Below are positions 6,779 through 19,922 of a stretch of DNA of 58,600 bases, piece by piece. This DNA is from a virus. Its lineage: Duplodnaviria > Caudoviricetes. The translations under genes were made by a program, and so were the position numbers. The notes under the pieces were generated by a model. That model did no database searches and was not told the DNA's origin. It worked only from the letters and a program-made list of their open reading frames with translations. The stretch spans positions 1 through 58,600 of IMG/VR virus record IMGVR_UViG_3300031834_000006. One strand, written 5' to 3'. Position 1 is the stretch's first letter. Every line of letters begins with the position of its first letter.

Positions 6779-7362
6779 TGGAACTTCTTTGATATTGTGT
6801 GAACTCGATCTAGAAAGTCGTGCAGGTTGCTGGTGCCTTTTGCGTAATTGCACGTAACGCAGCACGGAACGCAGTTGTCGTAAGTGTAGCCCACCTTGTT
6901 TTGCAGTCGGTCAATTCCCCAAGTTTTGTTTTCAACTGGTGTTTCGCCGCAGAAAAAGCAAGGTCTTTCAAATAATTCCAGCATTTCGTCCTTGGTTAGC
7001 GTGTGCGCAAGGCCCCGGCTCTTTGCAGAACTTGCGTTCTTTGTGCTCCACGCTTTAAAACGTGCGTCCCGGCTATTGCCCAACGTTCTTTTGTAGTGCT
7101 TTAAAGGCCTATTTACGGCTTTTTTTCTTTGGTTATACCAGTTTACTCTTCCTAACGTGGTGAAAAACATTCCCCCGGCAACGCTTTGACTGTACGCGTA
7201 AAAAACTTTGCTACCAAAAACTTCGTAACGCCTAAACTTTGCTTCTGGATTCAGTTTTATCCACGCACGAAGGGCTTGCCACTCCGCGCCGGACAAAGTT
7301 TTGGTGCTGGGAACTAGGAAGCCAGCACGCCTGTGAGCCTTTATTTTTGCTTCTAAATCCAA
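6775..7362 (-). CDS. HNH endonuclease
   Basis: CFFCG...GIDRLQNKVGYTYDNCVPCCVTCNYAKG zinc-finger HNH signature. Confidence 0.85.
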   Translation of the reverse strand: MDLEAKIKAHRRAGFLVPSTKTLSGAEWQALRAWIKLNPEAKFRRYEVFGSKVFYAYSQSVAGGMFFTTLGRVNWYNQRKKAVNRPLKHYKRTLGNSRDARFKAWSTKNASSAKSRGLAHTLTKDEMLELFERPCFFCGETPVENKTWGIDRLQNKVGYTYDNCVPCCVTCNYAKGTSNLHDFLDRVHTISKKFQ

Positions 7363-7842
7363 TTACTAAGCATTAAAGCATAATTTTGCGCCGTTCCAAA
7401 GAGAATTTTTTTTTGCAGGGGTGTATATATAGTATATAGAGTTGGAAAAAAAAATTGGCCACCCCCCAGTAGCCCCGCCGTGCACGCTGGTGCCCGCCCC
7501 CAGATCCTGCTAGATTTACCCAATTTGGCCCATCTAACAGTGAATCATGCGTCATGTACCGTGATTCATGGTCCATAACTCGTTGATACTGAAGCCTTAG
7601 TACTTTCAACTTGTTACAACGTATATAATACGGAGTCCAGTTTCTGGGTTCTGGATGCTGGGTTCTTGGGTCCGGCTCCGGCGGGGCTGGATGCGTAGGA
7701 CAAGCAACGTCCTATGGTGCTCTGGTATTACCCCGGGCATAGGACATTGCTTGTCCTACCCCGCATCCTGCACCGTGGATCTTGCATCTTGCATCCTGCA
7801 CCGTGTACCTTGGACCGCAGGGTACACTTGCGCGGTGCGGTG

Positions 7843-7935
7843 TACTACAAACCTAGTAACAAGATGCTTGGTGCTTGGTACTACAAACTTAGTACTTGTT
7901 AGTTTAAGCACTACTACAAACCTAGTACTTGTTAG
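7843..7935 (+). repeat. Triple direct repeat TACTACAAAC(C/T)TAGTA
   Basis: Copies start at 7843, 7879 and 7912; the last two match over 24 bp with 1 mismatch. Confidence 0.85.
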
Positions 7936-8067
7936 ACTAATCTAACGGGTGCTTTTCAACCCCCAAACCTTGTTAGTTAGCCTAACACTTTGAAAATAGT
8001 TTCGGCCCTGCAACCCTTGTAAACACTAAGAAAACTACCCGTTTGTGCCTTGGGTAAAAAATAATTG

Positions 8068-8095
8068 TAGACAGTTTCAACGGTAAGTGTAGCTT
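8068..8095 (+). promoter_or_regulatory. Putative early promoter upstream of the ribozyme array
   Basis: TAGACA-N16-TAGCTT preceded by an A-rich UP-like tract; lies ~30 nt before hammerhead 1. Confidence 0.4.
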
Positions 8096-8128
8096 GTGGT
8101 CGTTGCTGACAGCGGCGGCCAAACCAAA

Positions 8129-8182
8129 CCACCTGACGAAGGTCTCCGGCGGGAGACCGAAACCCCCTTGCGGGGGTCGTGG
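8129..8182 (+). ncRNA. Hammerhead ribozyme type I, copy 1 (predicted cleavage after C8178)
   Basis: CCAC CUGACGA A GGUCUCC-GGCG-GGAGACC GAAA CCCCC-UUGC-GGGGG UC^GUGG: complete catalytic core and three stems. Confidence 0.92.
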
Positions 8183-8215
8183 ACGCAAACAAGTCCCACT
8201 TACCAACCAACCACC

Positions 8216-8599
8216 ATGAAACAAGTAGACCTAAATATCGGGTTGGCCATTGGCCAGCAAAACAACGCACTGAGTTTAGCCCGTTGCAATCTCGGGCTGT
8301 CTCGTTTCGGGTTTTTGCCCGTACAACACCGCGTGTACGTTCGCGGGGGTTACGACGTACGGGGTTCCCAAAGCGGCGGCGAGAGCACTTACGCGGTGCG
8401 CTGCGCAGTGCTTGGGTCCCACTACGCAGCGGGGATATCCAACGAAGTGCCTGAGCGCATCCACGCATTGGCCGTTTGGCTGGACCAAGAGTGCATCGCG
8501 GCGGTGCCCCGTTGCGCAACCCCACCGTTCTTGGTGGGTCCAGCGGCTCACAAGTGGGGCGGCTGTTTTGAGGCACAGCTCTGGATCAGCGTAGACTAA
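8216..8599 (+). CDS. Early hypothetical protein (cargo of hammerhead 1)
   Basis: 127 aa, MKQVDLNIGL...; ATG follows an AC-rich leader; stop is 7 nt before hammerhead 2. Confidence 0.75.
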   Translation: MKQVDLNIGLAIGQQNNALSLARCNLGLSRFGFLPVQHRVYVRGGYDVRGSQSGGESTYAVRCAVLGSHYAAGISNEVPERIHALAVWLDQECIAAVPRCATPPFLVGPAAHKWGGCFEAQLWISVD

Positions 8600-8606
8600 C
8601 CTAAAA

Positions 8607-8660
8607 CCACCTGACGAGGCCCCTTGCAAGGGCCGAAACCCCCTGTAAAGGGGGTCGTGG
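8607..8660 (+). ncRNA. Hammerhead ribozyme type I, copy 2 (cleavage after C8656)
   Basis: CCAC CUGACGA GGCCC-CUUGCAA-GGGCC GAAA CCCCC-UGUAAA-GGGGG UC^GUGG: canonical core. Confidence 0.95.
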
Positions 8661-8687
8661 ACGCAAACAATAGTCCCAACCAAACCA

Positions 8688-8915
8688 ATGACAAAATTAA
8701 AAGCAATTCACAAAGTTCGGGGTTTTACTCTCACCCTCTATTATGACGGCACAATCTACTCTGATATCAAAAACGGGGTATACGTTGGGTCACTCTGGGA
8801 AGCTGAGAACGAGGGGTGCCTCTATAACCAATCAGGTACTGCTACTTTGCCAGTGCCAGAATCAGTAGTTGAAAAGTTCTGGGCTTTTGAACAAGCATTT
8901 TCTGATTCCCTGTAA
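8688..8915 (+). CDS. Early hypothetical protein (cargo of hammerhead 2)
   Basis: 75 aa ORF filling the interval between two ribozymes. Confidence 0.75.
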   Translation: MTKLKAIHKVRGFTLTLYYDGTIYSDIKNGVYVGSLWEAENEGCLYNQSGTATLPVPESVVEKFWAFEQAFSDSL

Positions 8916-8947
8916 TTTACCAATCAAGCGACCGAACTGTAAACAAA

Positions 8948-9003
8948 CCACCTGACGAAGGTCTCCGGCGGGAGACCGAAACCCCCTTTACAGGGGGTCG
9001 TGG
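8948..9003 (+). ncRNA. Hammerhead ribozyme type I, copy 3 (cleavage after C8999)
   Basis: CCAC CUGACGA A GGUCUCC-GGCG-GGAGACC GAAA CCCCC-UUUACA-GGGGG UC^GUGG. Confidence 0.92.
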
Positions 9004-9036
9004 ACGCAAACAAGTCCCACTTACCAACCAACCACC

Positions 9037-9693
9037 ATGACCACCACCACCACCATAGCTATTGCCGTACGCGTCAACCAATTCGTCAGCGTACAGGCCA
9101 CTTTGTACGCCCACTTGGGGCCTACTCCGGTAGCCCTGCACCGCACCGTGAACCGCGCTGGCTGGACCGTAACCAGCGTGGTTTGCGGTTTTGCAATGGT
9201 GCACGGCCCAACCCGCAACAAGGCCTTGGCGGAGTACCAAAGGGTCCTAATTGACTTGGGCCCCAGCGCGGTTTTGGCGCGGGTTGCGGCGGAGCCCGTT
9301 GCCCCAAGCCCCGATTCGCTCAAACCAGCCCCAACCAAACGGCCCAAGCCCAAGGCGGCTCCAGCCAACGGCGGCAACGCGGTTGCGGTAGCTTACGCGG
9401 TTGCAGAGCGTGCGGGACTTACGGTTGCGGAGCGGGACGCTGTTCTCCGCGCCTTGTGCAAGAGCGGCCCCAACGCTGGCCGATTACTGGCCCAAGCCCC
9501 AGCGCGGTACAAGGACCCGTTAGGCCAAGCCGCTTGGAACGGCTTGCAGCCCAACCCCTACAAAATCCAGCCAAGCTGCGTACTTTTGGCCGCACCTGCG
9601 GAGCGTGCACTGCTGGACAAGCTGGTGCCCAAGAACTGGCCAGTTTGGTTGGACTCAGACGCACGCGCGCTAGTAGAGCTAGGCGTTTGGTAA
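9037..9693 (+). CDS. Early hypothetical protein (cargo of hammerhead 3)
   Basis: 218 aa; two domains joined by a P/K-rich linker; TAA abuts hammerhead 4. Confidence 0.75.
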   Translation: MTTTTTIAIAVRVNQFVSVQATLYAHLGPTPVALHRTVNRAGWTVTSVVCGFAMVHGPTRNKALAEYQRVLIDLGPSAVLARVAAEPVAPSPDSLKPAPTKRPKPKAAPANGGNAVAVAYAVAERAGLTVAERDAVLRALCKSGPNAGRLLAQAPARYKDPLGQAAWNGLQPNPYKIQPSCVLLAAPAERALLDKLVPKNWPVWLDSDARALVELGVW

Positions 9694-9694
9694 A

Positions 9695-9748
9695 CCACCT
9701 GACGATGGCCCCTTGCAAGGGCCGAAACCCCCCTTGCGGGGGTCGTGG
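9695..9748 (+). ncRNA. Hammerhead ribozyme type I, copy 4 (cleavage after C9744)
   Basis: CCAC CUGACGA U GGCCC-CUUGCAA-GGGCC GAAA CCCCC-CUUGC-GGGGG UC^GUGG. Confidence 0.92.
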
Positions 9749-9776
9749 ACGCAAACAATAGTCCCAACCAACCAAA

Positions 9777-9986
9777 ATGAACAACGATCTATCAGATATA
9801 AAACACTACGAGTCAACATTTGACTCGGTCGCCCACGAACTTATCAGCTTGATTGCTGATAGAGAAAAAGAAGTAAAGGGTAGTATAGATAATACCCAAC
9901 TCATCGATGCGTACTACTCATTCAGAGATATCCTTCAAGCAAAAGCCCAACAGCTATACCCAGATTACGACTTCGAGAACTTCTAA
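9777..9986 (+). CDS. Early hypothetical protein (cargo of hammerhead 4)
   Basis: 69 aa acidic helical ORF. Confidence 0.7.
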   Translation: MNNDLSDIKHYESTFDSVAHELISLIADREKEVKGSIDNTQLIDAYYSFRDILQAKAQQLYPDYDFENF

Positions 9987-9990
9987 CATC

Positions 9991-10284
9991 ATGATTATAC
10001 TCTTAAGACAAAGCAACATTAAATTAGGCACCCCTAACGACCACAGTCTAACGTTGGCTGAAGCAGGATTTATCTGGGTCAAATACCTTGAGGTGTTCGA
10101 CGATAGGATTGAGTTCATGCCTCTTGGTCAGCAAGACTATGAACCCACGGCAATTAAAAAAGTTAATGGTGACTGTTGGTTAGAACCCAACACGGGAATC
10201 ATGTACGAATATTTCTTCGTATACCCTTCGGAGTGGGTTCGATCATTACCCCGTCACCTAGAAATCAAACCTAAAACCACCTGA
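9991..10284 (+). CDS. Early hypothetical protein
   Basis: 97 aa from ATG 9991 (MIILLRQSN...); its TGA stop is part of the CUGACGA core of hammerhead 5. Confidence 0.65.
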   Translation: MIILLRQSNIKLGTPNDHSLTLAEAGFIWVKYLEVFDDRIEFMPLGQQDYEPTAIKKVNGDCWLEPNTGIMYEYFFVYPSEWVRSLPRHLEIKPKTT

Positions 10285-10329
10285 CGAGGCCCCTTGCAAG
10301 GGCCGAAACCCCCCTTGCGGGGGTCGTGG
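10277..10329 (+). ncRNA. Hammerhead ribozyme type I, copy 5 (cleavage after C10325)
   Basis: CCAC CUGACGA GGCCC-CUUGCAA-GGGCC GAAA CCCCC-CUUGC-GGGGG UC^GUGG. Confidence 0.95.
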
Positions 10330-10355
10330 ACGCAACCACAACCAACCAACCAACC

Positions 10356-10529
10356 ATGACCACTGAAACAATAGACTGTACCCCTACTTGGGAGTTCGCC
10401 GCCAACGTTTATATCGAAGTCCTACGGAACCCAGACGCGGGTTTCTACGCGGTGCAAACCGCCAAGGACGAAATCCTGCGCTTGGCCCGCACCGTGGACC
10501 AACTCAACCAAATCAACCAAAAACCATGA
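10356..10529 (+). CDS. Early hypothetical protein (first cargo of hammerhead 5)
   Basis: 57 aa, MTTETIDCTPTW...; follows an ACCAACC-repeat leader. Confidence 0.7.
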   Translation: MTTETIDCTPTWEFAANVYIEVLRNPDAGFYAVQTAKDEILRLARTVDQLNQINQKP

Positions 10530-10891
10530 AAATCGAACAAGAATTACGCGCTAGAAAGCTCATCATTACCGCCGATCCCCAGCAGGTCGCCAAAATTACT
10601 GGGGTCAAAGAGCTCCAGTACGGCCGGACCCATGAGGTCTTTGCTGGTGCTCCGTGCCAGTGGAGCCTCGAACGGGGGGCAACCCATACCCTGTACTGCG
10701 GCGAGGGCATTGGACGCGGTACACGCCCTGCCAAACTGCTTAAAACTCGGCTGTACGCGGGTGTGGACGAGCTTGACGACCAGATCGTTTGGCACAAGTG
10801 GAACATACGAACTCTTTGGGAGTTCCCGCTTACCGAAACCGCGTGCGTGCGCGAAGTAACCGCTGAAGAACTCGAAGAACTCCAACCATGA
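10526..10891 (+). CDS. Early hypothetical protein
   Basis: 121 aa, MKIEQELR...; ATGA overlap with the previous gene. Confidence 0.7.
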   Translation: MKIEQELRARKLIITADPQQVAKITGVKELQYGRTHEVFAGAPCQWSLERGATHTLYCGEGIGRGTRPAKLLKTRLYAGVDELDDQIVWHKWNIRTLWEFPLTETACVREVTAEELEELQP

Positions 10892-11037
10892 ACCTTGACC
10901 TACTAATCATTGTGGGCACCACCTACCTTGGCAACGCGCTAATCTTTGGATGGCTGCAAGCCTTGCCTTATACTATAACCATAGTAGCTGCTTCTGCGGC
11001 CATTTGGTTAGTGTTAGTGTTAGGCTGCATCCTGTAA
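10888..11037 (+). CDS. Small hydrophobic membrane protein (not in the ORF track)
   Basis: 49 aa MNLDLLIIVGTTYLGNALIFGWLQALPYTITIVAASAAIWLVLVLGCIL; ATGA-coupled. Confidence 0.6.
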   Translation: MNLDLLIIVGTTYLGNALIFGWLQALPYTITIVAASAAIWLVLVLGCIL

Positions 11038-11054
11038 CTTGAAACCTGAAAACT

Positions 11055-11417
11055 ATGACCAAACAACTGAACTGGAAACCCGTGGTAAGTAGCCTAATTA
11101 AGCTGCTACAAGCGGAAAAATACCGCGTGCTTTACGTGCACGACGGCCAAGACCACCACTACTACCACGAACTGGATTCGTTAAGAACAACCTGTTTTAA
11201 AGCCAGCAAGGCCATTTGCGCGGTTGACGAAGCCTACTTGGTGGTTGAGGACCTAAGTCAGGGTAGCGGCTACACGCTTACGCTTTTCTTGGTCCTTGGA
11301 AACAGCCCAGAAGAAATTGTAGCTGATTGCAGTTGCAATGCACGCTTGGACGAGGTACTAGAAGCCTTTAGCACATTTTGGCAAGGAGCTCCTTGCCCAA
11401 CCAAAACACAACCATGA
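11055..11417 (+). CDS. Early hypothetical protein
   Basis: 120 aa ORF in a coupled operon. Confidence 0.7.
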   Translation: MTKQLNWKPVVSSLIKLLQAEKYRVLYVHDGQDHHYYHELDSLRTTCFKASKAICAVDEAYLVVEDLSQGSGYTLTLFLVLGNSPEEIVADCSCNARLDEVLEAFSTFWQGAPCPTKTQP

Positions 11418-11575
11418 CCACCATATTAAAATTAAACGTTAGGCTTTTGGTGCAGCACCAAGAGGACTTCGATGCCCAGAAATTCGTGGATGAACTCCGC
11501 TACGATTTCTTTGACCCAGCGATCCAAGAAGTAGAAATTATTGAAATCCTTAGCCAAGAACCCCGTGACCTTTAA
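11414..11575 (+). CDS. Early hypothetical protein
   Basis: 53 aa from ATG 11414; ATGA overlap. Confidence 0.6.
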   Translation: MTTILKLNVRLLVQHQEDFDAQKFVDELRYDFFDPAIQEVEIIEILSQEPRDL

Positions 11576-11798
11576 ACTTACGTGCACCCACAAGTGGGGC
11601 CTAATTCAAGCTGGGGAAAACTACCAAGTCCGGCGTAACCCGTACGGGCTTGCGGTTTTTCAAGAAAATGACTTGCCAGCTTGGACCGCGCACCCAACAG
11701 TGGTGCTGGATCCGGAAGGCAAGTGCCACCCTAACAAGTTCTTTACAAACGCACCACAACCATCCCAGATTACGACTTCGAAAACTTCTAAGCCATGA
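11565..11798 (+). CDS. Early hypothetical protein
   Basis: GTG start; fills the operon gap; start position uncertain. Confidence 0.5.
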   Translation: MTFKLTCTHKWGLIQAGENYQVRRNPYGLAVFQENDLPAWTAHPTVVLDPEGKCHPNKFFTNAPQPSQITTSKTSKP

Positions 11799-12085
11799 AA
11801 CCAACAACAGCCATTAAGAAAGCTGGGTCCTTAGTGGGCCAGCTCCAGCGAACCGGAAACGCTTGGGCGTACCTTTGGTACGACCAGCAATACAACGCCT
11901 ACCGCAGCATTAATTACTGCGACTACTGGCAAGCGTACAGCAAACGCCGCACAAGCCTAATTGAAACGGCTTTGCGGCTTTTATTCCCAGACCAAGACCA
12001 AGAACTCGCCGGACTCCAACCAGAGTACCGCAGCGGCCGTTGGCAAAACTGGGTTTGGCAAATCTACCAACAAAACCAAGCATGA
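11795..12085 (+). CDS. Early hypothetical protein (W/Y-rich)
   Basis: 96 aa; ATGA overlap. Confidence 0.7.
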   Translation: MKPTTAIKKAGSLVGQLQRTGNAWAYLWYDQQYNAYRSINYCDYWQAYSKRRTSLIETALRLLFPDQDQELAGLQPEYRSGRWQNWVWQIYQQNQA

Positions 12086-12387
12086 AAACAAAAGAACAAA
12101 TAGAACAGCAAAATAACGCAATCCACGTAGCCCTGCTTTTGGGTGCGCACTACTCCACGCAAGCGGAACAACACAAACTGCGTTTGCCTTGCGGCATTGA
12201 GCTCCTGCTTTGGTGGGACCTTAACAACCAAGTGCATGTGCAGTGCGTTCAGGGCCGTGGATACCACCGCTGTCAACACCCGTTTGAAAGCTCGCGCACT
12301 TTAGCCCGCCGTTGCCAAAGCTACGTTTGGGTTATTACCAAAGACTGGGACCAAGAAAACTACCCAAATAAAAGCACCAATGTTTGA
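12082..12387 (+). CDS. Early hypothetical protein
   Basis: 101 aa from ATG 12082; ATGA overlap. Confidence 0.65.
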   Translation: MKTKEQIEQQNNAIHVALLLGAHYSTQAEQHKLRLPCGIELLLWWDLNNQVHVQCVQGRGYHRCQHPFESSRTLARRCQSYVWVITKDWDQENYPNKSTNV

Positions 12388-12613
12388 CTCCTTAACAACA
12401 ACCGAAAGCGGGGACCTGCGCCAATGCGTTAGCGAAGCGCACGCCACTAACTGCGGGCCTGAACGTTTGTTCAGGGACCACAACGATATTTACGTAGACA
12501 GAAACGCACGTTTCAATTACACTGCGGACCAAATCTGGCGCGGGGGAACAATTCCCAAGCGCAGAGACACAAAAACAAACCAAGAACCCAATATAGATTA
12601 TGCACGGTATTAA
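12380..12613 (+). CDS. Early hypothetical protein
   Basis: 77 aa ORF overlapping both neighbours. Confidence 0.55.
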   Translation: MFDSLTTTESGDLRQCVSEAHATNCGPERLFRDHNDIYVDRNARFNYTADQIWRGGTIPKRRDTKTNQEPNIDYARY

Positions 12614-13034
12614 CGAAATCAAAAAGCAAAACGCACAAGCAAAAGCAAACTACGACAACAGCCGCCAAGGCACTTTCGTAGTACTCCAAAACGGCAACGT
12701 ACTGTTGCGTTTGGGGGCCCACTCAAAGACCATTGAAAGCCGCGACGAAGCCGCCGAGTTCTTGGACCAAGTCCGTGGACGAACCAGCGGTTACGTTCGA
12801 GGCGTGGTGCAGGGGTATTTCACCCAGCCGGACTTCGAACAGGATTTTGAAGACAGCCGCAACGGCACGTACAGCGTGCTGGATAGCGGAGGCATTCTAA
12901 TCCGGAACGGCCTAAGCAGCAAAACTATTGACGAGCCACAGGACATTGTAGAGTTCTTGGGCAAGGTGGTGGACCGCGAAACCGAACTCGTTCGCAACGC
13001 GGTGAAGTCTTACTTTGCTCCGGCCTTGGCATGA
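12600..13034 (+). CDS. Early hypothetical protein with an internal domain duplication
   Basis: YDNSRQGTFVVLQNGNVLLR..SKTIE..EFL repeated as FEDSRNGTYSVLDSGGILIR..SKTID..EFL. Confidence 0.75.
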   Translation: MHGINEIKKQNAQAKANYDNSRQGTFVVLQNGNVLLRLGAHSKTIESRDEAAEFLDQVRGRTSGYVRGVVQGYFTQPDFEQDFEDSRNGTYSVLDSGGILIRNGLSSKTIDEPQDIVEFLGKVVDRETELVRNAVKSYFAPALA

Positions 13035-13111
13035 CCCTGTTCCTATTCTGGATGTTTCTAGTTTGCTCGGTAATGGGCATTGCGGCTTCCATCCTTAACA
13101 TAGCCCTATAA
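13031..13111 (+). CDS. Putative 26-aa membrane peptide
   Basis: MTLFLFWMFLVCSVMGIAASILNIAL; ATGA-coupled; ends just before the terminator. Confidence 0.45.
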   Translation: MTLFLFWMFLVCSVMGIAASILNIAL

Positions 13112-13115
13112 AACC

Positions 13116-13155
13116 AAAGCCCCAAGGTCTAATGAACCTTGGGGCTTTTTTGTTT
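13116..13155. terminator. Bidirectional intrinsic terminator between the convergent early and virion operons
   Basis: AAAGCCCCAAGGT...ACCTTGGGGCTTT stem with a T-run on the plus strand and an A-rich flank. Confidence 0.85.
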
Positions 13156-16100
13156 TACGGGTTTACGGGTATGAACCTTGGCCGCTTTTGTATGGCTTGT
13201 TTTAAGTAGTCAACCCGAGCTTGGCCGTTAGATTCACCGCCGCGCTCAAGCATTTCGCTAAACATATCTTTTTCAAACACAACCCGATCCACCACGTTGC
13301 GTTTTATAATTTGGTTGTAGCGGTCCTTACTAATTCCAACGTCATTTGCTTGGCGTTTAAGTTCCTGCTCGCTTACGCCTAGCTTCTGGAAACCGCTTAC
13401 TATTTTCTGCAACTTACGGGCCGCGAACAAACGTGCGTCTTCCAAGCTAACGTAAACGTCTTCCACCTGTTGCGAGCTCAGGGGTGCCTCTGTTTTAAAC
13501 TTACCCCGCTCGGCCGTAACCGCATCTTGGTCCCTTTTAATTTTACCAAACGCTTGGTGCGCTAGCTTAACCAAGTCGTACCTACGGGTTTGGAAAGGAC
13601 TAAACTCGTTTGCCACTAGCTCCGAAGCCGTGGCCAGCCTTGCGTCTTGGTCGTAAATACTATTGTTAGTGTACGCTTCAAACGCTTGCAAGAACTTCTG
13701 CGGGGACTTCAAACGGTACGCTGAGTTGGCTAAGTACTTAACAACTTTAAACGCGGCTTCCGGCGTGCTATCATTTTCGTACCAAATTTTTCCGCCTTGG
13801 TCGTTTGTATTGTTCCGCGCCTTGGCAATAGCTTCAACGGCAATTTGGGGCGAGAAAAACGCGTGCGCAACGGCCCCAAAAAGAACCGCTGGAGCTTCGT
13901 CTGCGCGTCCGTTTAGCATTAAGTGCGCGGACCTCATAAACGGATCCGTTATAAGCGAAAACGGGTGCACGTACGTAAGGTTCCACATTTTAATTTTGCT
14001 TGGGTCCTGCTGGTCCTTTGCAAAGTAGTAGTTAACGTCCTTTGCCCAAGCCGGAAGGCTATTCCGAATCGACTCTTCTTGGTCGTCTTCAAAACCACCT
14101 ACGGCTTTAAGAATTTCTGGAACCGCGCTGCTTGCAAGCACCAAGCCAAGTCCGGCTAGTCTTTTAATACCCCGAGCCCGTAAAACTGGGTTGCCGGAGT
14201 TAAATTCTTTAAAGCCAACCGAAGTAATGGCAAAGGGTAACCGAACAGTTTCTGCGGTGAACCGGAAATAGCTGTTCATTAGGGTAGCCAACGGGCTGGC
14301 TTGGAAAGCCTTGGCCACGGCCACAACCTCGGACCTACCCTGCGTTGTTTTGCGTACAGTTCGCGCAGCCAATTGTTTAATTTGAGTTTCAGTCCACTTG
14401 GTGGTATTGTACGCGTTAGCCTCGGTTAAAACCTTAACTTCGTGCGAGTAGTACGCGAACTTGTACATCAAATCAATTGCTTCTGCGGCTGAAGCCAGCG
14501 AATCAAAGGCCGAACTAACAGCTTGGTAAGGAGCCTTAACAGCGGTTAGCGTGGCCGAGGCTACCTTGCCCTTGTTTCGAATTGTTTCTTCCAACTTTGC
14601 TAGAAAGTTAACTGGGTCCCCGCTCATTCCGTTTAGCAGGTCCTTTAAAACCCCACCGTTTATGGAGTCCTTTAGACCCAAAGCAATAAGGTCCGAGCCT
14701 AACGGGCCCAGCTCGCTTAGGCTAAACTTTTCGTCGGGTCTAGCAAACTCCGGCAATATTTGCGCGGCGCGGTTTAAGAAGTTCGTACCGTAAATTTCGT
14801 TTAGACCTTTAATAGAGTCGGCAATGTTTGCGGGGCTGGCAATGAAACCATTTGCACCCATGTACAACACGTTGCTAACCATGTTACGGGTATAGAATCC
14901 GGCCGAGCCAAGCGTAAGCATACCCAAGGATTTTCCAATAGCCTTTGCGGTTAGCAGTTCGATTTGGTAAATGAACTGAGCGGCATCACTTTTCGGGGCT
15001 TTGCGGTCCGGGGAGAACGATACTTTAAATGCTTCCTTTACTTCCGGCGGTGCGTAGTAATTTGACAAAGGCTCGCCGCCCAAGGTCTTGGTTGAGTTAA
15101 GCAAGGGCTCGTACAGCCTGTACTTTTCTGGGTCCTTGGCCTTTTCGTCGGCGGTAACTAGGAACCCGTTGTCCAAGCCACCTTGGGCGAACTGGTTAAG
15201 CAGCCTTTGCGTTCCTAAAAAGGTAGACAAGTTCGAGTACGTACGCATGGCGTTTTCAACTGGGTTCTGTATTTCCCCCAGAATTGCAACCAGCTCACGC
15301 GGCACTTCACCCTTTTCCATGAACCGTGTAAGGTCAGTTTTATTAAGAATCTTTCCCGGGATTTCTGGAGTTTCGCCGTGCTGTTCAATGAAGTTATCCA
15401 GCTCAATTGAACCAATGCTTTGGGCACGCGCTTCGGCTTCAACCAAGGCTCTAACTTCCGCGTCCGAATACACCGCGTACAAGTCATTTGAACGCCAGCT
15501 TTTAAAGGTGCGGTTTACCCAAGCCTTTTCAAAGAAGTCCCTTGCTTCTTGCCTTGCTTGCGCAAAGGTTGGATCGTTTTTAATTTTCTCAACGTAGCCT
15601 TCGTCGTGGTGGATTTGGTAGGTGCGGGTAAGGTACACGCCCAAGTTCTCGGTAACCACCGCACGCATTGGATCGTTTGGCCCAAGCGACTCAACCAATT
15701 GCTGGCTTAGCGAATCAATTGCGATACGGAACTCGGTTACCACGTTGGCCACGCGGGGGTTGTTTTGCTCTAGCCGGAACAACGCTTGTTGCTGGGCAAC
15801 CATTGCTGTTTTAACGCCCTTGGCTCGGGCGGCTTGGATTTCCAAAGCGTACGCGGAGTTGGCCGCTGTAATGGCGGCGGTTCGCGTTTGCTTTTCCGGT
15901 GAGTTAGCGAGCTCGGCTTGCAACGTAGTAACCTCGCGCTGGTAAAGTTTTACGTCTTGGTGCGTGGCGTAGTCAGCGCGTGCCTTTATGGTGCCTTGCT
16001 GGTACCTTGCGTACGCTTGGTCAGTTTGTTTGTACTGAGCGTTTAGGGCTTCCAGCTCCGCGTCCCGCGTTGCTTTGGCGGCGGCGCGGTCAGCCGTTGA

Positions 16101-19100
16101 AACGGTTGGGGCCGTGGTGCCCAACGCAACGTTAACATCGTCCAAGTCTACGGTAGGTTCTTTCTTTAACGCGCCCAAGAAAGTCTTGGTTAGTCCGGCC
16201 ACGCGTTGGTTGGCCAAGCTCATTGCACGTTCTTGGTACTGCTTGGCTTCGTACATACGTGGATCCAAGTTTCCGGATGCACGCAACAAGCGGGTTAGCT
16301 TGTTACCAAAGTTGTACTCGCCCGTTACCTCGTTAATTGCTAGGTCATCCAGCGATACTCGGTAAGCTGACTCAATGTCCGGCGAGGTTACCGCAGTAAG
16401 TGCTCGGCTTAACAGAATTTTTGGTTCTTTAGGCTTTGGGTTTAGCGCAAGCGAGCGGTCGCTATCGGGGACCTTGGTTACCTTGTGCTGGCCAAACAAG
16501 ACCCCAGCCGTGTGAGTTTTAGAAACGTATCCAGCAAAACCTTTGTCCTTAATTGCTTTTTCGTACAAAGTAGTGGCGGCGCGGTCATCAAAACGGGCGT
16601 ACCCCAACGCAACACGTTCGTCTCGGCTTGGGAACAGGTCCAAGGGGTCAGCATCGTAGTCGTACAAACTGTCTCCTGCCACCTTAATTTGGTAACGGAA
16701 CTGCCCAATAATGTGTTCGCGCACGTAACTGCTATAACCAAAATACGTTCTTGGTTGGTAAATCTTTTTGTAGTCCCGCTTGCGGTCCTTCTCAGATCCA
16801 ATTCCGCCAGTGCCGTGCATATTAGGGTCTGTGTTTTCTAGTTCCGAGTCAAAGGACCAGTGAGTAAGCTGAACTTCTTTGCCTCGGAACCTTGCTGGTG
16901 CAGCGGACTTGCTGTACCGAATGTCGTTGCTTTGTATATCAAAGCGTTGATCAAGCGGAACTCCCGTGAATGCTTCTGCGGATTTGATTTGCTCGGGATT
17001 AAGTATTATTGTTTCAGAGGAATCTGAATGAGCAGTTCCTGCAAAACGAACTGAATCATATCCATTCTTTAGTAGGTAAGCCCTTGTGTTTTCACCAATT
17101 TTATCCTTACCTGTGATATTTATACCAAGGTGATTCACCAATAAAGATTCAAGCTGATCTTGCCCTTGAGAAACAAGGAATGGTTTGTCTGACTTTACAA
17201 ACAACGATAAAACTTCACCTGTTTGTTTTATGGTTTGATGTGGGTAATCCCCTTCAAAATAACGGCCAACGTATTGCGCTGAATCGGCAATATCTTTTCT
17301 TCCAGAAACAAAAAAACCAATCTTGCTTCCGATTGTCCGAGTATTCTTACCAAGTAACTCGGTAAGAAATTGAGTAACTCCACGAGTTTTTGTTCCGTGA
17401 TATACTCTCTCGTCATACCCCGATGATCGTGCACGTTTTTCAACAAGCTTTTTCGCTTCAGCCGTCTCCTCTGGTGTGATCGTTCCGTCGTTATACTTAG
17501 CTTCAAGCTCAGCGTGGCGAACAAGGTAGTCGGCATCCATTTGTGGCGTTGCAGCGCGGCTGTACCGCAAGTCAATTTGTCCGGTTGGCTCTGCCGCCAA
17601 GTTAACTCGAGGCTGCTGGTAACGCGGCTTTGAGTCGTACGTGGGGTTCTTCATAAAAACCCTTGACCCAACTATAATTGCATCGTCAAAAGTAAGAACG
17701 GGTAGCTTGGTGCGTACGTCAACAAACTCGCTCGACCGTGCTGGGTTGTACGCAATTTCGGCCCATACTTCTGGGTCGTTAATGTCGGCTGGCAATCGGT
17801 CGATCTTAACGTTCTCGCCCCGCACCGTGGCAAGCGGGAACTTGCCGCCGCCCTGCGCAATGGAAATTGGGCTACCCTTTTCAGCTCGGGTAATTACTTG
17901 GCCGTTCTTAACTCTGGCAATGGTTGTATAGCCAAGCACAGTGCTTGCTCTTGCTGTACCTCCCGGCTTGTGCGCGGTAATTGCGTACGTTACTTCTCCG
18001 GCTTCCAACGAACGATTGTAGGTGGGAATGTCGATACGCCAGTCAACTAGCTGGCCCTCGGGAATACCCAAGTCCGCCATTACCTTGCCAATCTTTTCTT
18101 CCTCGTCAGCGGATAATACCTTACCGTCACGGCGAGCAACAATGTATTGCTTAACTTGATCCACGGGCGGAATGGCTTGCGCACCCTTAACTACCCAAGG
18201 ATCTAGTACTTCAACCAAGTCAGCAAAGGTTGCGTTATCAATTTGACCTTCGGCCAAACGAACGGCGGCAACGGCCAGCTCGCCAGAACGTTTGTTCTTG
18301 GTTGCGCTAGCAAAAGCCTTGCTTTCTTGTTCCGTGGTTGGAGCCAAAGCTGCACGGCTAAACTGAATTGTTGGAGCGTTATCGTCCACGGTTAAAGAAT
18401 CACGGGTCCAAGCAACGGACTCAGCAATGGTTCCGTCCGCATTAAGAATAACAAGGCCATCGTAGCCTTGCTTTTCACCCAAGCTCTTAAAGTGTTTTCC
18501 AATGTTACCGTATTCTTCAAACAAGTGCTCGGCCTTAGCGGCTGCCTTTTCTTCGGTTAAGCCCAACGCTTTAAAAACCAAAGCTGGACCCCTTGCTTTG
18601 TCCGATACCTTAACAACCAAGGGCTTCATAAACAATACGTCAAACGTAGTTACTTCTGCTTGGCCCTTTTCTTTTCTAGCTTCTTTGGCGTAGTCTACAG
18701 AACGTGCAGCGTCTGGGGTAGTGTAGTACCCGTAACCGTAAACGCCTTCCGCGCTAGCCTTCATTGGGGTGCGCCCGTCAAACGTTCCGCCGTGGTAACC
18801 CGTAACGTAAAGCGGCTTGCCGTTCGGCGGGTTAACAGCTACCTTGGGTATGCTAAGCTGGTTAAGTATACCTTCTTTTGTAGTGGCGCGGCTGTACCGA
18901 ATGTCCGGTGCAGCTTCGTTGAACCGCTCGCTTAACGGGATTACTCTATCCTTGTTGCGGGTAACGGGGTCTGCGGACTTGATTTGCTCAGGTGAAAAAA
19001 CAACAATAAATTCAGGTCCGTCAACCGCTCCGTCAAAGCCGCGATCAATTATGTCTCCGGTAACATCACCGTTTTCTTTTAGGTAACCAATAGTAACGGG

Positions 19101-19922
19101 CTCACCCTCTTCGTCTTCTGCCAAAGTACCGTCTTCGTAGCGGTAGCCCTCGCCTTGGAAATCATATGGGTTTTCTAATTGCAAGTATACCGAGTAAGCG
19201 TAGTCACCGTATTCTGGCATTGGCTCTTTTGAAAAATAGTTCTCGCCCTCTTCAAACTCTGTAAAAGGACCGTCCTTATCAAAATTCTCACTGGGGGTTG
19301 TGTGGTATGCTTTTACGTTATACCCCGCAGCCTTTGCCGCTGCATCCACCATGCGCTGCGCCGTAGCTGTGTCGTTAGCGGCTACCGCTGCAAGGTAGTC
19401 GGCATCCATTTGTGGCGTTACCGCAGCGCGGCTCCGTTGAATTGTAGGGGCTGCTTGCTCCAAAGGTACTTCTCCGGCTTGGCCCTTGCGCAGCTCAACT
19501 TGTGCCCAGCTCGGGAAACCAAGGCTCTTAGCCAAGTCTTCGGTATTTGCAAAAGCTTCGTTAATGTCCTTGCCCGTGGCCAGTTGGTATACAGCGGCCC
19601 GTGCGTCTTCAATTGTAAACTTCTTGTCCTTTTCGTACCGAGCCCAAACCGCACGCACCGCGTCCACGTTCTTCTTGTTTGACTTCCACTTGGCTGTAAA
19701 CAGCAAGCGCACAGCTTCCCAAGTAATGGATTGAATTTCGCGGGGCAACAAGCCAAAGGTCTTGGCGGCAGCGCGGTACGCTTCGGCGTTGGCCGCGTAC
19801 AAGCCGTTAACACCCAAAATAGAATTGTTAGTAACGTTGCTTGAACCAAAGTTCTGGCTAACCTCAAAGCTGTTTCCGCTTAGGGCTTGCCAGTACAACG
19901 CGGCAACCGCGTGGGTGTCCAT
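13155..19922 (-). CDS. Giant polyvalent internal virion/ejection protein, C-terminal part (several ADP-ribosyltransferase-like modules)
   Basis: 2255 aa; repeated YHG/YHT...G.Y/F...GYDG...PEQIKSA modules; helical C-terminal region; in frame with the upstream 2465-aa ORF across one TAG. Confidence 0.75.
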   Translation of the reverse strand: MDTHAVAALYWQALSGNSFEVSQNFGSSNVTNNSILGVNGLYAANAEAYRAAAKTFGLLPREIQSITWEAVRLLFTAKWKSNKKNVDAVRAVWARYEKDKKFTIEDARAAVYQLATGKDINEAFANTEDLAKSLGFPSWAQVELRKGQAGEVPLEQAAPTIQRSRAAVTPQMDADYLAAVAANDTATAQRMVDAAAKAAGYNVKAYHTTPSENFDKDGPFTEFEEGENYFSKEPMPEYGDYAYSVYLQLENPYDFQGEGYRYEDGTLAEDEEGEPVTIGYLKENGDVTGDIIDRGFDGAVDGPEFIVVFSPEQIKSADPVTRNKDRVIPLSERFNEAAPDIRYSRATTKEGILNQLSIPKVAVNPPNGKPLYVTGYHGGTFDGRTPMKASAEGVYGYGYYTTPDAARSVDYAKEARKEKGQAEVTTFDVLFMKPLVVKVSDKARGPALVFKALGLTEEKAAAKAEHLFEEYGNIGKHFKSLGEKQGYDGLVILNADGTIAESVAWTRDSLTVDDNAPTIQFSRAALAPTTEQESKAFASATKNKRSGELAVAAVRLAEGQIDNATFADLVEVLDPWVVKGAQAIPPVDQVKQYIVARRDGKVLSADEEEKIGKVMADLGIPEGQLVDWRIDIPTYNRSLEAGEVTYAITAHKPGGTARASTVLGYTTIARVKNGQVITRAEKGSPISIAQGGGKFPLATVRGENVKIDRLPADINDPEVWAEIAYNPARSSEFVDVRTKLPVLTFDDAIIVGSRVFMKNPTYDSKPRYQQPRVNLAAEPTGQIDLRYSRAATPQMDADYLVRHAELEAKYNDGTITPEETAEAKKLVEKRARSSGYDERVYHGTKTRGVTQFLTELLGKNTRTIGSKIGFFVSGRKDIADSAQYVGRYFEGDYPHQTIKQTGEVLSLFVKSDKPFLVSQGQDQLESLLVNHLGINITGKDKIGENTRAYLLKNGYDSVRFAGTAHSDSSETIILNPEQIKSAEAFTGVPLDQRFDIQSNDIRYSKSAAPARFRGKEVQLTHWSFDSELENTDPNMHGTGGIGSEKDRKRDYKKIYQPRTYFGYSSYVREHIIGQFRYQIKVAGDSLYDYDADPLDLFPSRDERVALGYARFDDRAATTLYEKAIKDKGFAGYVSKTHTAGVLFGQHKVTKVPDSDRSLALNPKPKEPKILLSRALTAVTSPDIESAYRVSLDDLAINEVTGEYNFGNKLTRLLRASGNLDPRMYEAKQYQERAMSLANQRVAGLTKTFLGALKKEPTVDLDDVNVALGTTAPTVSTADRAAAKATRDAELEALNAQYKQTDQAYARYQQGTIKARADYATHQDVKLYQREVTTLQAELANSPEKQTRTAAITAANSAYALEIQAARAKGVKTAMVAQQQALFRLEQNNPRVANVVTEFRIAIDSLSQQLVESLGPNDPMRAVVTENLGVYLTRTYQIHHDEGYVEKIKNDPTFAQARQEARDFFEKAWVNRTFKSWRSNDLYAVYSDAEVRALVEAEARAQSIGSIELDNFIEQHGETPEIPGKILNKTDLTRFMEKGEVPRELVAILGEIQNPVENAMRTYSNLSTFLGTQRLLNQFAQGGLDNGFLVTADEKAKDPEKYRLYEPLLNSTKTLGGEPLSNYYAPPEVKEAFKVSFSPDRKAPKSDAAQFIYQIELLTAKAIGKSLGMLTLGSAGFYTRNMVSNVLYMGANGFIASPANIADSIKGLNEIYGTNFLNRAAQILPEFARPDEKFSLSELGPLGSDLIALGLKDSINGGVLKDLLNGMSGDPVNFLAKLEETIRNKGKVASATLTAVKAPYQAVSSAFDSLASAAEAIDLMYKFAYYSHEVKVLTEANAYNTTKWTETQIKQLAARTVRKTTQGRSEVVAVAKAFQASPLATLMNSYFRFTAETVRLPFAITSVGFKEFNSGNPVLRARGIKRLAGLGLVLASSAVPEILKAVGGFEDDQEESIRNSLPAWAKDVNYYFAKDQQDPSKIKMWNLTYVHPFSLITDPFMRSAHLMLNGRADEAPAVLFGAVAHAFFSPQIAVEAIAKARNNTNDQGGKIWYENDSTPEAAFKVVKYLANSAYRLKSPQKFLQAFEAYTNNSIYDQDARLATASELVANEFSPFQTRRYDLVKLAHQAFGKIKRDQDAVTAERGKFKTEAPLSSQQVEDVYVSLEDARLFAARKLQKIVSGFQKLGVSEQELKRQANDVGISKDRYNQIIKRNVVDRVVFEKDMFSEMLERGGESNGQARVDYLKQAIQKRPRFIPVNP

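Follow-up and report, generated by a model that had tools for sequence, protein, structure and literature searches.

Tandem hammerhead ribozymes have already been described in prophages. In the passages of Perreault et al. 2011 (PMC3088659) that deal with them, these ribozymes share one polarity and flank small phage genes whose function is unknown, singly or in short blocks; they are proposed to divide a long transcript into single-gene messages, and contacts between stems I and II are recognized as pseudoknots. According to the same passages, such pseudoknots occur in about 40% of hammerheads, in all three types, and mutation showed that they are needed for fast cleavage. Further, a 2019 review (PMC6765202) states, in its part on bacterial and phage hammerheads, that more work is needed to define their purpose. 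Here we describe five hammerhead motifs in the whole IMG/VR virus record IMGVR_UViG_3300031834_000006, a stretch of 58,600 bases that we call the window, and the short hairpin with which each message cut by them would begin. The tandem arrangement, the transcript-processing idea and the pseudoknots are known, and the locus resembles the prophage ribozymes in these respects. It differs from them in that its first ribozyme has no upstream gene and in that its copies score below the Rfam cut-off. What seems to be new is a downstream arm matched to stem I, which forms the hairpin. The main-text passages of PMC3088659 mention neither a downstream copy of the 5' strand of stem I nor a hairpin that opens the 3' product (Dataset S1 and Figures S4-S5 of the paper might show them). 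We found no description of a stem-I-matched downstream arm in the literature searched, the passages of PMC6765202 included.

We searched the window with a hammerhead descriptor (CUGANGA ... GAAA ... GUC). It matched five times, always on the + strand, between 8133 and 10325, while 0.43 matches were expected and 0 of 100 shuffled sequences reached five. The copies share one layout, namely CCAC and CUGACGA, in some copies one more base, then stem II, GAAA, stem III, UC and GUGG, and each is predicted to cut after GUC (Table 1). Stem I (CCAC/GUGG) has 4 base pairs (bp), stem II 5 or 7 bp and stem III 6-7 bp. Stem I is open and stems II and III are closed by loops, which is the type I topology. 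Stem II differs in a compensatory way between copies 1 and 3 (GGUCUCC/GGAGACC) and copies 2, 4 and 5 (GGCCC/GGGCC). All core positions of the consensus given in a passage of PMC3088659 (C3 U4 G5 A6 N7 G8 A9 ... G12 A13 A14, A15.1-U16.1, H17) are present in five of five copies, as CUGACGA ... GAAA ... U-C. Since no copy reached the Rfam cut-off, we judged membership by the defining features. By these the five copies qualify as type I hammerhead ribozymes, with predicted self-cleavage that would leave a 2',3'-cyclic phosphate and a 5'-OH.

We then considered the RNA that would remain downstream of each cut. As the original prediction had stated, the products of copies 1 and 3 begin with GUGGAC-GCAAACAA-GUCCCAC, which can fold into a hairpin with one bulge, and those of copies 2 and 4 keep GGAC...GUCC. 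Copy 5 had been thought to have lost the hairpin. It does lack GUCC, but it holds a 4-bp hairpin, GUGG-ACGCAA-CCAC, that had been overlooked. With this correction, the observation of hairpin-led products was confirmed. The hairpin energies calculated with RNAfold were -6.4 kcal/mol for copies 1 and 3, -4.9 kcal/mol for copies 2 and 4 and -5.0 kcal/mol for copy 5. The competition with stem I for GUGG, also part of the prediction, can be read directly: the GUGG that forms the 3' strand of stem I also serves as 5' arm of the hairpin, and only one of these pairings can exist at a time. The bases complementary to loop II sit in the loop and the inner stem of the hairpin, and therefore the hairpin excludes both contacts that would hold the 3' product on the ribozyme. 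Such a competition would fit release of the product and capping of its 5' end. The predicted mean unpaired probability from -15 to +5 around the AUG was 0.38-0.89 in the precursor, with 200 nucleotides (nt) of upstream RNA attached, and 0.74-0.97 in the product; it rose in all five copies.

We collected close relatives with a pattern of a hammerhead followed by GUCG(Y)GGACGCAA, which matched 7 stretches of viral and 17 of metagenome contigs. The descriptor found 46 hammerheads in these stretches, 37 of them unique; with the five window copies added, the subfamily counts 42 sequences. We scored the hairpin by motif counts, as loops of variable length put the 3' arm out of register on the MAFFT alignment. 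A 5'-terminal hairpin was present in 42 of 42 sequences (-4.8 to -6.4 kcal/mol), starting at base +1 or +3. It came in three solutions: GGAC/GUCC in 31 sequences, bases 1-4 with their reverse complement in 9, and both in 2 (window copies 1 and 3). The loops measured 6-13 nt, those of the GGAC/GUCC form being 6-11 nt long and varying in sequence. All nine sequences without GUCC pair GCGG...CCGC or GUGG...CCAC instead. The same gene start can even follow different hairpins, GUGG/CCAC in window copy 5 and contig L356, GGAC/GUCC in contigs L039 and L353. The GGAC/GUCC pairing, whose conservation in homologs had been at stake in the original prediction, is thus kept in 33 of the 42 sequences, and a stem-I-matched hairpin stands in the other nine.

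The ribozyme stems are also maintained in this subfamily. Over 41 distinct rows (from the five copies and the 37 unique relatives), 92.6% of the cells were paired and 10 of the 16 pairs changed on both sides; 0 of 500 shuffles were as high, and slid partners gave 35-56% paired. Subfamily units occur 3-7 per contig in freshwater and marine metagenome contigs (L364, L363, L370, L353, L358, L359), always before small open reading frames (ORFs). A search of 185,579 representative prokaryote genomes with the subfamily pattern gave 6 matches. All of them lacked a stem I complement and hammerhead stems, and we took them as chance matches that give no hint of the host.

Further, we asked how the downstream arm behaves among phage type I hammerheads in general, using three scans of viral sequences. 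Figures for this wider class are counts among the matches listed and describe a sample, not a census. The fixed part was CCAC ... GUCGUGG in scan 1, GUCGNGGAC in scan 2 and ACGC at +5 to +8 in scan 3; the sequence further downstream was left free in all of them. The class descriptor (core, folded stems II and III, stem I of at least 4 bp) was run over all matched loci and gave 228 type I hammerheads in 118 clusters at 80% identity, among them others on the same contigs with different stem I sequences. An additional base after A9 and before stem II, which window copies 1, 3 and 4 also have, was present in 46 of the 118 cluster representatives, and is therefore a common variant among phage type I hammerheads. 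We scored a hairpin strictly, when bases +1 to +4 were Watson-Crick paired with a 4-mer 3-14 nt downstream. It was found in 58 of 118 clusters (57 of 116 without the window), most commonly with a loop of 4 nt. When the first four bases were taken from a cluster with another stem I, 12.7 +/- 2.8 clusters scored (maximum 23 in 1000), and shuffled tails gave 10.0 +/- 2.8 (maximum 20). The start of the hairpin peaks at +1, the count falling from 58 clusters at offset 0 to 29 and 12 at offsets 1 and 2 and to 2-9 at offsets 3-15.

The arm follows the sequence of stem I. There were nine combinations of stem I and arm among the matches listed: GUGG/CCAC in 34 clusters, GCGG/CCGC in 12, GUAG/CUAC and CGGG/CCCG in 3 each, ACGG/CCGU in 2, and GCAG/CUGC, UUGG/CCAA, GUGA/UCAC and GGGG/CCCC in 1 each. 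In the first 89 clusters, CCAC was found in 34 of 63 tails beginning with GUGG and in 2 of 13 beginning with GCGG, and CCGC in 4 of 63 and 9 of 13, respectively. The alternative helix was no longer than stem I in 55 of the 58 clusters with a hairpin. These comparisons show that the downstream arm varies together with stem I across the wider class, which has the same design as the window.

The tail carries a second signal, complementarity to loop II. At least 3 bp between loop II and tail bases 5-12 were possible in 105 of the 118 clusters, against 43.1 expected with loops from other clusters (maximum 64), and at least 4 bp in 48 clusters against 10.6 expected (maximum 23). The triplets of loop and tail covary (for example GGU-ACC, GGC-GCC, GAC-GUC, GGA-UCC, GGG-CCC). 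In two loci (L279 and L330) a loop GGCA stands with a tail AUGC, where others pair GGCG with ACGC. In the window the tail element ACGCAA suits both loop types. In copies 1 and 3 its CGC can pair with GCG of the GGCG loop, and in copies 2, 4 and 5 its GCAA can pair with UUGC of the CUUGCAA loop. Judged by this complementarity, the loop II contact of the window is a pseudoknot of the kind described in the passages of Perreault et al. (PMC3088659). We also considered a pseudoknot hammerhead solved by crystallography (PMC11300833) as the closest form and rejected it, since there the pseudoknot replaces helix II.

In 108 of the 118 clusters an ORF started no more than 150 nt from the cut, at a median of 37 nt, and 87 of these 108 leaders held a motif like the Shine-Dalgarno (SD) sequence. 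The common design of the class, as read from these leaders, is a ribozyme, a hairpin and then the host's own start signal. An extreme case of the cassette design of the window is a viral contig of 6.6 kb (L179), with at least 10 tandem type I hammerheads about 300-500 nt apart. Most of its tails hold an inner hairpin, and each unit continues with AGAAGGAG and a start codon.

In the window the start signal is of another kind. The five leaders consist of A and C with few U, and they contain no G and no SD motif. An SD-like 4-mer stood upstream of only 3 of 67 crudely called ORFs of the window, and G made up 11% of positions -20 to -1 against 25% of the coding sequence (40 ATG-start ORFs of at least 100 amino acids (aa), from the 67). 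Equally AC-rich leaders precede several genes without a ribozyme, for example at 42129. This genome-wide scarcity of SD motifs and depletion of G suggests that the host does not use Shine-Dalgarno pairing. The original prediction regarded the tracts as an SD-less, AC-rich entry site made by cleavage. They are indeed G-free and lack an SD motif, but this is the ordinary start context of the phage. G makes up 1% of the 12 bases that precede the AUG in the subfamily, A is at -3 in 31 of 33 unique leaders, and many relatives have U-rich, G-free leaders in place of the ACC repeats. The 5' ends had also been expected to be uniform, which does not hold strictly. The leaders of the subfamily are 27-42 nt long (mode 30), and an extra CAAC unit was inserted at 10338 in the leader of copy 5 in DNA contigs of two runs. 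L356 likewise has one more repeat, so leader length differs between strains by one repeat unit.

We consider the best explanation to be cleavage followed by refolding of the 3' product into the hairpin, which would bring release of the product, a one-way cut, a paired 5'-OH end and an open leader, and we estimate its probability at roughly 0.55. According to this explanation, the 4-bp stem I and the loop II pseudoknot would hold the active fold, and the ribozyme would cut after GUC in vivo. The ribozyme body would stay at the 3' end of the upstream RNA, and the downstream message would start at GUGG with a 5'-OH. A second partner for the GUGG strand, GUCC(CAC) or CCAC, lies a few bases downstream, and pairing with it would enclose the pseudoknot element. 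The 3' product would snap into a hairpin from base +1 and leave the ribozyme, whereby the cut would become irreversible and the 5'-OH end would be left base-paired. Next would come a G-free, unstructured leader of 10-16 nt with A at -3, the normal SD-independent start context of this phage. The processed message would then consist of the 5' hairpin, a short open leader, the ORF, two GC-rich ribozyme stems and a 3' cyclic phosphate. This arrangement might also affect the stability and the translation of the message.

The same could apply beyond the window, and to this broader proposal we would give slightly less than an even chance. Phage type I hammerheads may carry a two-state switch that has gone unnoticed, in which a spare 5' strand of stem I would capture the new 5'-OH end and the pseudoknot strand after cleavage. 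This would make the cut one-way and place a base-paired 5' end on every downstream message. The product of the ribozyme would be a hairpin-capped message with a defined leader, and not merely a cut. Known topology (Hertel numbering) speaks for the refolding explanation: type II and III hammerheads yield a 3' product that opens with the closed stem I hairpin at +1. The spare arm would give type I products the same kind of end.

Several observations weigh against the refolding explanation. An Rfam scan of the whole window at the gathering score gave no match at all, a scan of 7000-13000 up to E 10 gave no hammerhead match, and RF00163 (Hammerhead_1) detected copy 2 only, at 16.1 bits against a cut-off of 34. 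Scores below this cut-off reflect the coverage of the model and not the behaviour of the RNA; the type I model of Rfam misses a large group of phage hammerheads with a short stem I. Since stems II and III are alike in copies 4 and 5 (9706-9744 and 10288-10325) and their loops share UUGC, RNAfold favours a single long hairpin spanning the two stems to the hammerhead fold. This predicted hairpin is possibly a misfold or a regulatory third state. The product hairpins have weak z-scores against dinucleotide shuffles (-1.4 to -2.4), and 7-20 of 200 shuffles fold equally well. Therefore the single-sequence hairpins are not clearly beyond chance, and their support comes from sequence comparison. Further, the minimum free energy fold of the precursor contains the hairpin and not stem I in five of five copies, stem I costing 1.5-4.0 kcal/mol with the pseudoknot not counted. 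This gap means that the hairpin and hammerhead states are near in energy. A hairpin predicted to be stabler before cutting could equally inhibit cleavage, and one of 4-6 bp and about -5 kcal/mol may be too weak to stop an exonuclease.

The comparative data also contain points of this kind. The subfamily search pattern itself fixed GGACGCAA, the subfamily sequences are mutually related, the GGAC/GUCC stem shows no compensatory change in 33 of them, and in 5 of the 37 relatives loop II does not complement ACGCAA. In the wider class, 60 of 118 clusters have no strict hairpin. The clusters at 80% identity are not independent lineages, and the shuffle counts are not probabilities. The hairpin is rare in the clusters from scans 2 and 3 (6 of 29 among the matches listed), where the first pair is often at base +3 or the loop is longer. 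Finally, we found no runs that are recorded as RNA and contain the hammerhead region, and run contigs cannot show RNA ends.

The energies raise the question whether the hairpin works as an OFF state ahead of the cut, one that slows or gates cleavage (through temperature, Mg2+, transcription speed or the ribosome) and makes processing partial or delayed. The hairpin fold is favoured over the hammerhead in all five precursors by the margin given above, the arm lies only 6-13 nt behind GUGG and would be transcribed long before a typical cut, and regulated cleavage was suggested for phage hammerheads in a passage of Perreault et al. (PMC3088659). Nevertheless, we regard such gating as unlikely. 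The alternative helix exceeds stem I in almost none of the clusters with a hairpin, which looks like selection against out-competing the active fold. Moreover, the pseudoknot, left out by the energy model, adds 3-4 bp to that fold in 105 of 118 clusters among the matches listed, and no ligand-binding or sensor element is visible. The strength of this pseudoknot signal across the class might in turn mean that the tail serves the ribozyme only, by giving loop II its pseudoknot or tertiary partner, the subfamily hairpin being a by-product, or GUCC being kept for something else, for example a protein site. The fit of ACGCAA to both loop II kinds of the window, the lack of compensatory change in GGAC/GUCC and the stem I/II pseudoknots documented for type I as well as other hammerheads (PMC3088659, in the passages cited above) agree with this. 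We give it only a small chance, since the arm tracks the identity of stem I through nine combinations while the pseudoknot is independent of it. In addition, tails such as GAGCCAaCCAC keep the pseudoknot element and the CCAC arm as separate elements, and the pairing potential of GUCC is retained over loops of 6-11 nt and taken over by a CCGC or CCAC arm wherever GUCC is missing.

The original prediction went further than refolding and proposed a dedicated SD-less, AC-rich entry site, with the 5'-OH and the hairpin serving mainly as a shield from 5'-monophosphate-dependent decay by RNase E/J. The leaders are G-free and predicted to be open, and the hairpin starts at +1, in the protective geometry; Emory, Bouvet and Belasco reportedly showed in 1992 that a hairpin at the 5' terminus protects 5' ends. 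The A at -3 of the subfamily leaders is, according to a passage of PMC6847099, a positive determinant in SD-less Bacteroidetes. We find this full model rather improbable all the same, because SD-less, G-poor upstream regions are genome-wide here, relatives exchange the ACC repeats for U-rich tracts, and most other phage hammerhead leaders among the matches listed carry an ordinary SD-like motif. Further, a passage of PMC11780869, citing Collins 2007, reports that in B. subtilis RNase J1 breaks down the 5'-OH product that the glmS ribozyme leaves, which for this species contradicts the claim that a 5'-OH is a poor substrate of RNase J. A paired 5' end would then, if anything, be more useful in hosts with RNase J. 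The repeats could instead matter mainly as DNA, with the units of about 85 nt (ribozyme and leader) as recombination points at which small cassettes are shuffled, duplicated and deleted, and with the RNA features secondary. Contigs of other runs join hammerhead copies (8943 to 8125, 8986 to 10319, 9702 to 10312), relatives hold 3-7 units with partly different cargo, and the genes flanking the prophage ribozymes are not constant according to a passage of PMC3088659. It is hardly probable that this is their main role, as joints at repeats in metagenome contigs, aligned here at 85% likeness, are often assembly artefacts, and the stems and the hairpin arm carry compensatory changes, which show that RNA pairing is under selection. 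Recombination would in any case be compatible with an RNA function rather than replace it. Refolding after cleavage remains our preferred explanation, and the earlier interpretation as a whole is partly supported. From the comparison of sequences, we conclude that the hairpin is real, conserved and wider in significance than had been known when it was first noticed.

Table 1. Positions of the ribozymes, product hairpins, leaders, cargo genes and terminator-like element in the window
Feature	Position	Strand	Details
Hammerhead 1 (type I)	8129-8178	+	CCAC 8129-8132; core CUGACGA 8133-8139, extra A 8140; predicted cut after C8178
Hammerhead 1, rest	8141-8178	+	stem II 8141-8158, loop GGCG 8148-8151; GAA 8159-8161; stem III 8162-8177; C17 at 8178
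Hairpin of product 1	8179-8199	+	GUGGAC-GCAAACAA-GUCCCAC, one bulged C, loop GCAAACAA; C8184-C8186 (CGC) complements GCG of loop II
Leader 1	8200-8215	+	G-free CUUACCAACCAACCACC up to AUG 8216; A at -3
Cargo ORF 1	8216-8599	+	127 aa; matches phrog_11722, function unknown
Hammerhead 2	8607-8656	+	stem II GGCCC/GGGCC, loop CUUGCAA; predicted cut after C8656
Hairpin of product 2	8657-8677	+	GUGGAC-GCAAACAAUA-GUCCC; GGAC/GUCC plus G1-C21, 10-nt loop; loop GCAA complements UUGC of loop II
Leader 2	8678-8687	+	G-free, to AUG 8688
Cargo ORF 2	8688-8915	+	75 aa; no family match
Hammerhead 3	8948-8999	+	stem II as in copy 1; predicted cut after C8999
Hairpin of product 3	9000-9020	+	identical to hairpin of product 1
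Leader 3	9021-9036	+	G-free, to AUG 9037
Cargo ORF 3	9037-9693	+	218 aa; no family match; stop 9691-9693, 1 nt before hammerhead 4
Hammerhead 4	9695-9744	+	extra U follows A9; predicted cut after C9744
Hairpin of product 4	9745-9765	+	GGAC/GUCC form; GUGGAC-GCAAACAAUA-GUCCC
Leader 4	9766-9776	+	G-free, to AUG 9777
Cargo block 4	9777-10284	+	ORFs 9777-9986 (69 aa) and 9991-10284 (97 aa); second stop UGA 10282-10284 within CUGA core of hammerhead 5
Hammerhead 5	10277-10325	+	predicted cut after C10325
Hairpin of product 5	10326-10339	+	GUGG-ACGCAA-CCAC, 4 bp, -5.0 kcal/mol
Leader 5	10340-10355	+	G-free AACC repeats, to AUG 10356
Cargo ORF 5	10356-10529	+	57 aa; N-terminus likewise follows hammerheads in L039, L353, L356
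Two-way terminator-like hairpin	13116-13148	both	perfect 13-14 bp, T-runs on both strands; between converging gene blocks; closes rightward block

The genes behind the ribozymes are small, and one of eight small proteins had a PHROG match, to a PHROG of function unknown. Given the position of the stop of cargo ORF 3 and of the second stop of cargo block 4 (Table 1), ribosomes that terminate there would sit on the ribozyme. No ORF lies upstream of copy 1, which could thus only trim the primary leader. Variants of the locus occurred in DNA contigs of four runs; there, copies 1 and 2 had changes in the stem III loop.

The window is a nearly complete genome of an uncultured phage; the record is classed as linear and about 97% complete. 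We found no match of its DNA in 50,697 phage records. Its DNA polymerase had only distant protein matches (at most 27% identity), a protein of 631 aa had no match in a protein similarity search, and no tRNA genes were found in the window. The hammerheads occupy the first 2.3 kb of a rightward gene block that runs from about 8.1 kb to 13.03 kb. A promoter and terminator scan of 7400-13200 gave counts no higher than shuffles, with no promoter assignable to the block, and a sigma-70 scan upstream of hammerhead 1 gave nothing above chance. Just upstream of hammerhead 1, at 7843-7940, are three close copies of TACTACAAAC(C/T)TAGTA, each a small inverted repeat (TACTA...TAGTA), and at 7763-7812 is a direct repeat, GCATCCTGCACCGTG. 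Both groups of repeats may be promoter or operator boxes of the rightward block. The non-coding gap between the leftward and the rightward block also contains an inverted repeat at 7695-7759, with 22-nt arms that are 95% complementary and 21 nt apart; Rfam gave only microRNA matches at chance level for it. On the - strand there are two giant ORFs, 13155-19922 (2255 aa) and 19938-27335 (2465 aa). The former has an ADP-ribosyltransferase domain of polyvalent proteins (PF18760, E 9e-19), and the latter matches only PHROGs of function unknown.

The start sites of the window resemble those of Bacteroidia. In the passages of PMC6847099 on Bacteroidetes, initiation occurs without SD, is tuned by mRNA structure and has A at -3 as a positive determinant. 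The window shares with this the G-free leaders, the A at -3 found throughout most of the subfamily and the genome-wide scarcity of SD motifs. The match is one of start-site style only. A position just upstream of an ORF is shared with the type I hammerheads in 5' untranslated regions of RNA mycoviruses, where self-cleavage is needed for translation initiation according to the passages of PMC13725137; in both, cutting would be linked to expression of the gene that follows. Those are RNA viruses with eukaryotic cap-independent translation, while the window belongs to a DNA phage of a bacterial host.

Stem-loops at the 5' terminus stabilise bacterial mRNA in the ompA leader of E. coli and in the ermC and aprE leaders of B. 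subtilis. The hairpins of the window are similar to these in having no or almost no unpaired 5' bases. They differ in that the known leaders carry triphosphate or monophosphate ends from transcription starts, while the window would have a 5'-OH made by the ribozyme, followed by a short hairpin (4-6 bp, about -5 kcal/mol).

The closest engineered counterpart is RiboJ, to which the original prediction had likened each repeat as an insulator. The architecture of the window and the predicted rise in start-site accessibility would fit such insulation, as an analogy with a synthetic part and not as membership. RiboJ uses a type III hammerhead of a satellite virus, and its ribozyme body stays on the message, while in the window the body would stay on the upstream RNA. 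As described in the passages of PMC7536230, RiboJ is a synthetic insulator made of a hammerhead and a 23-nt hairpin, and the cleaved messages were reported to be longer-lived. In both cases a self-cutting hammerhead would strip variable upstream RNA and the coding part would receive a defined end and then a hairpin. However, the added hairpin of RiboJ is separate from stem I, whereas that of the window re-uses the four leftover bases of stem I and is followed by an SD-less leader. Copy 1 offers the closest parallel, since it could only trim the primary leader.

In summary, a hairpin built from the bases that the cut sets free would give these phage ribozymes a concrete role, namely to define and cap the 5' end of the next message and perhaps to make the cut irreversible. 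It would also be a compact natural design for ribozyme insulators, one that leaves only about 30 nt on the message.

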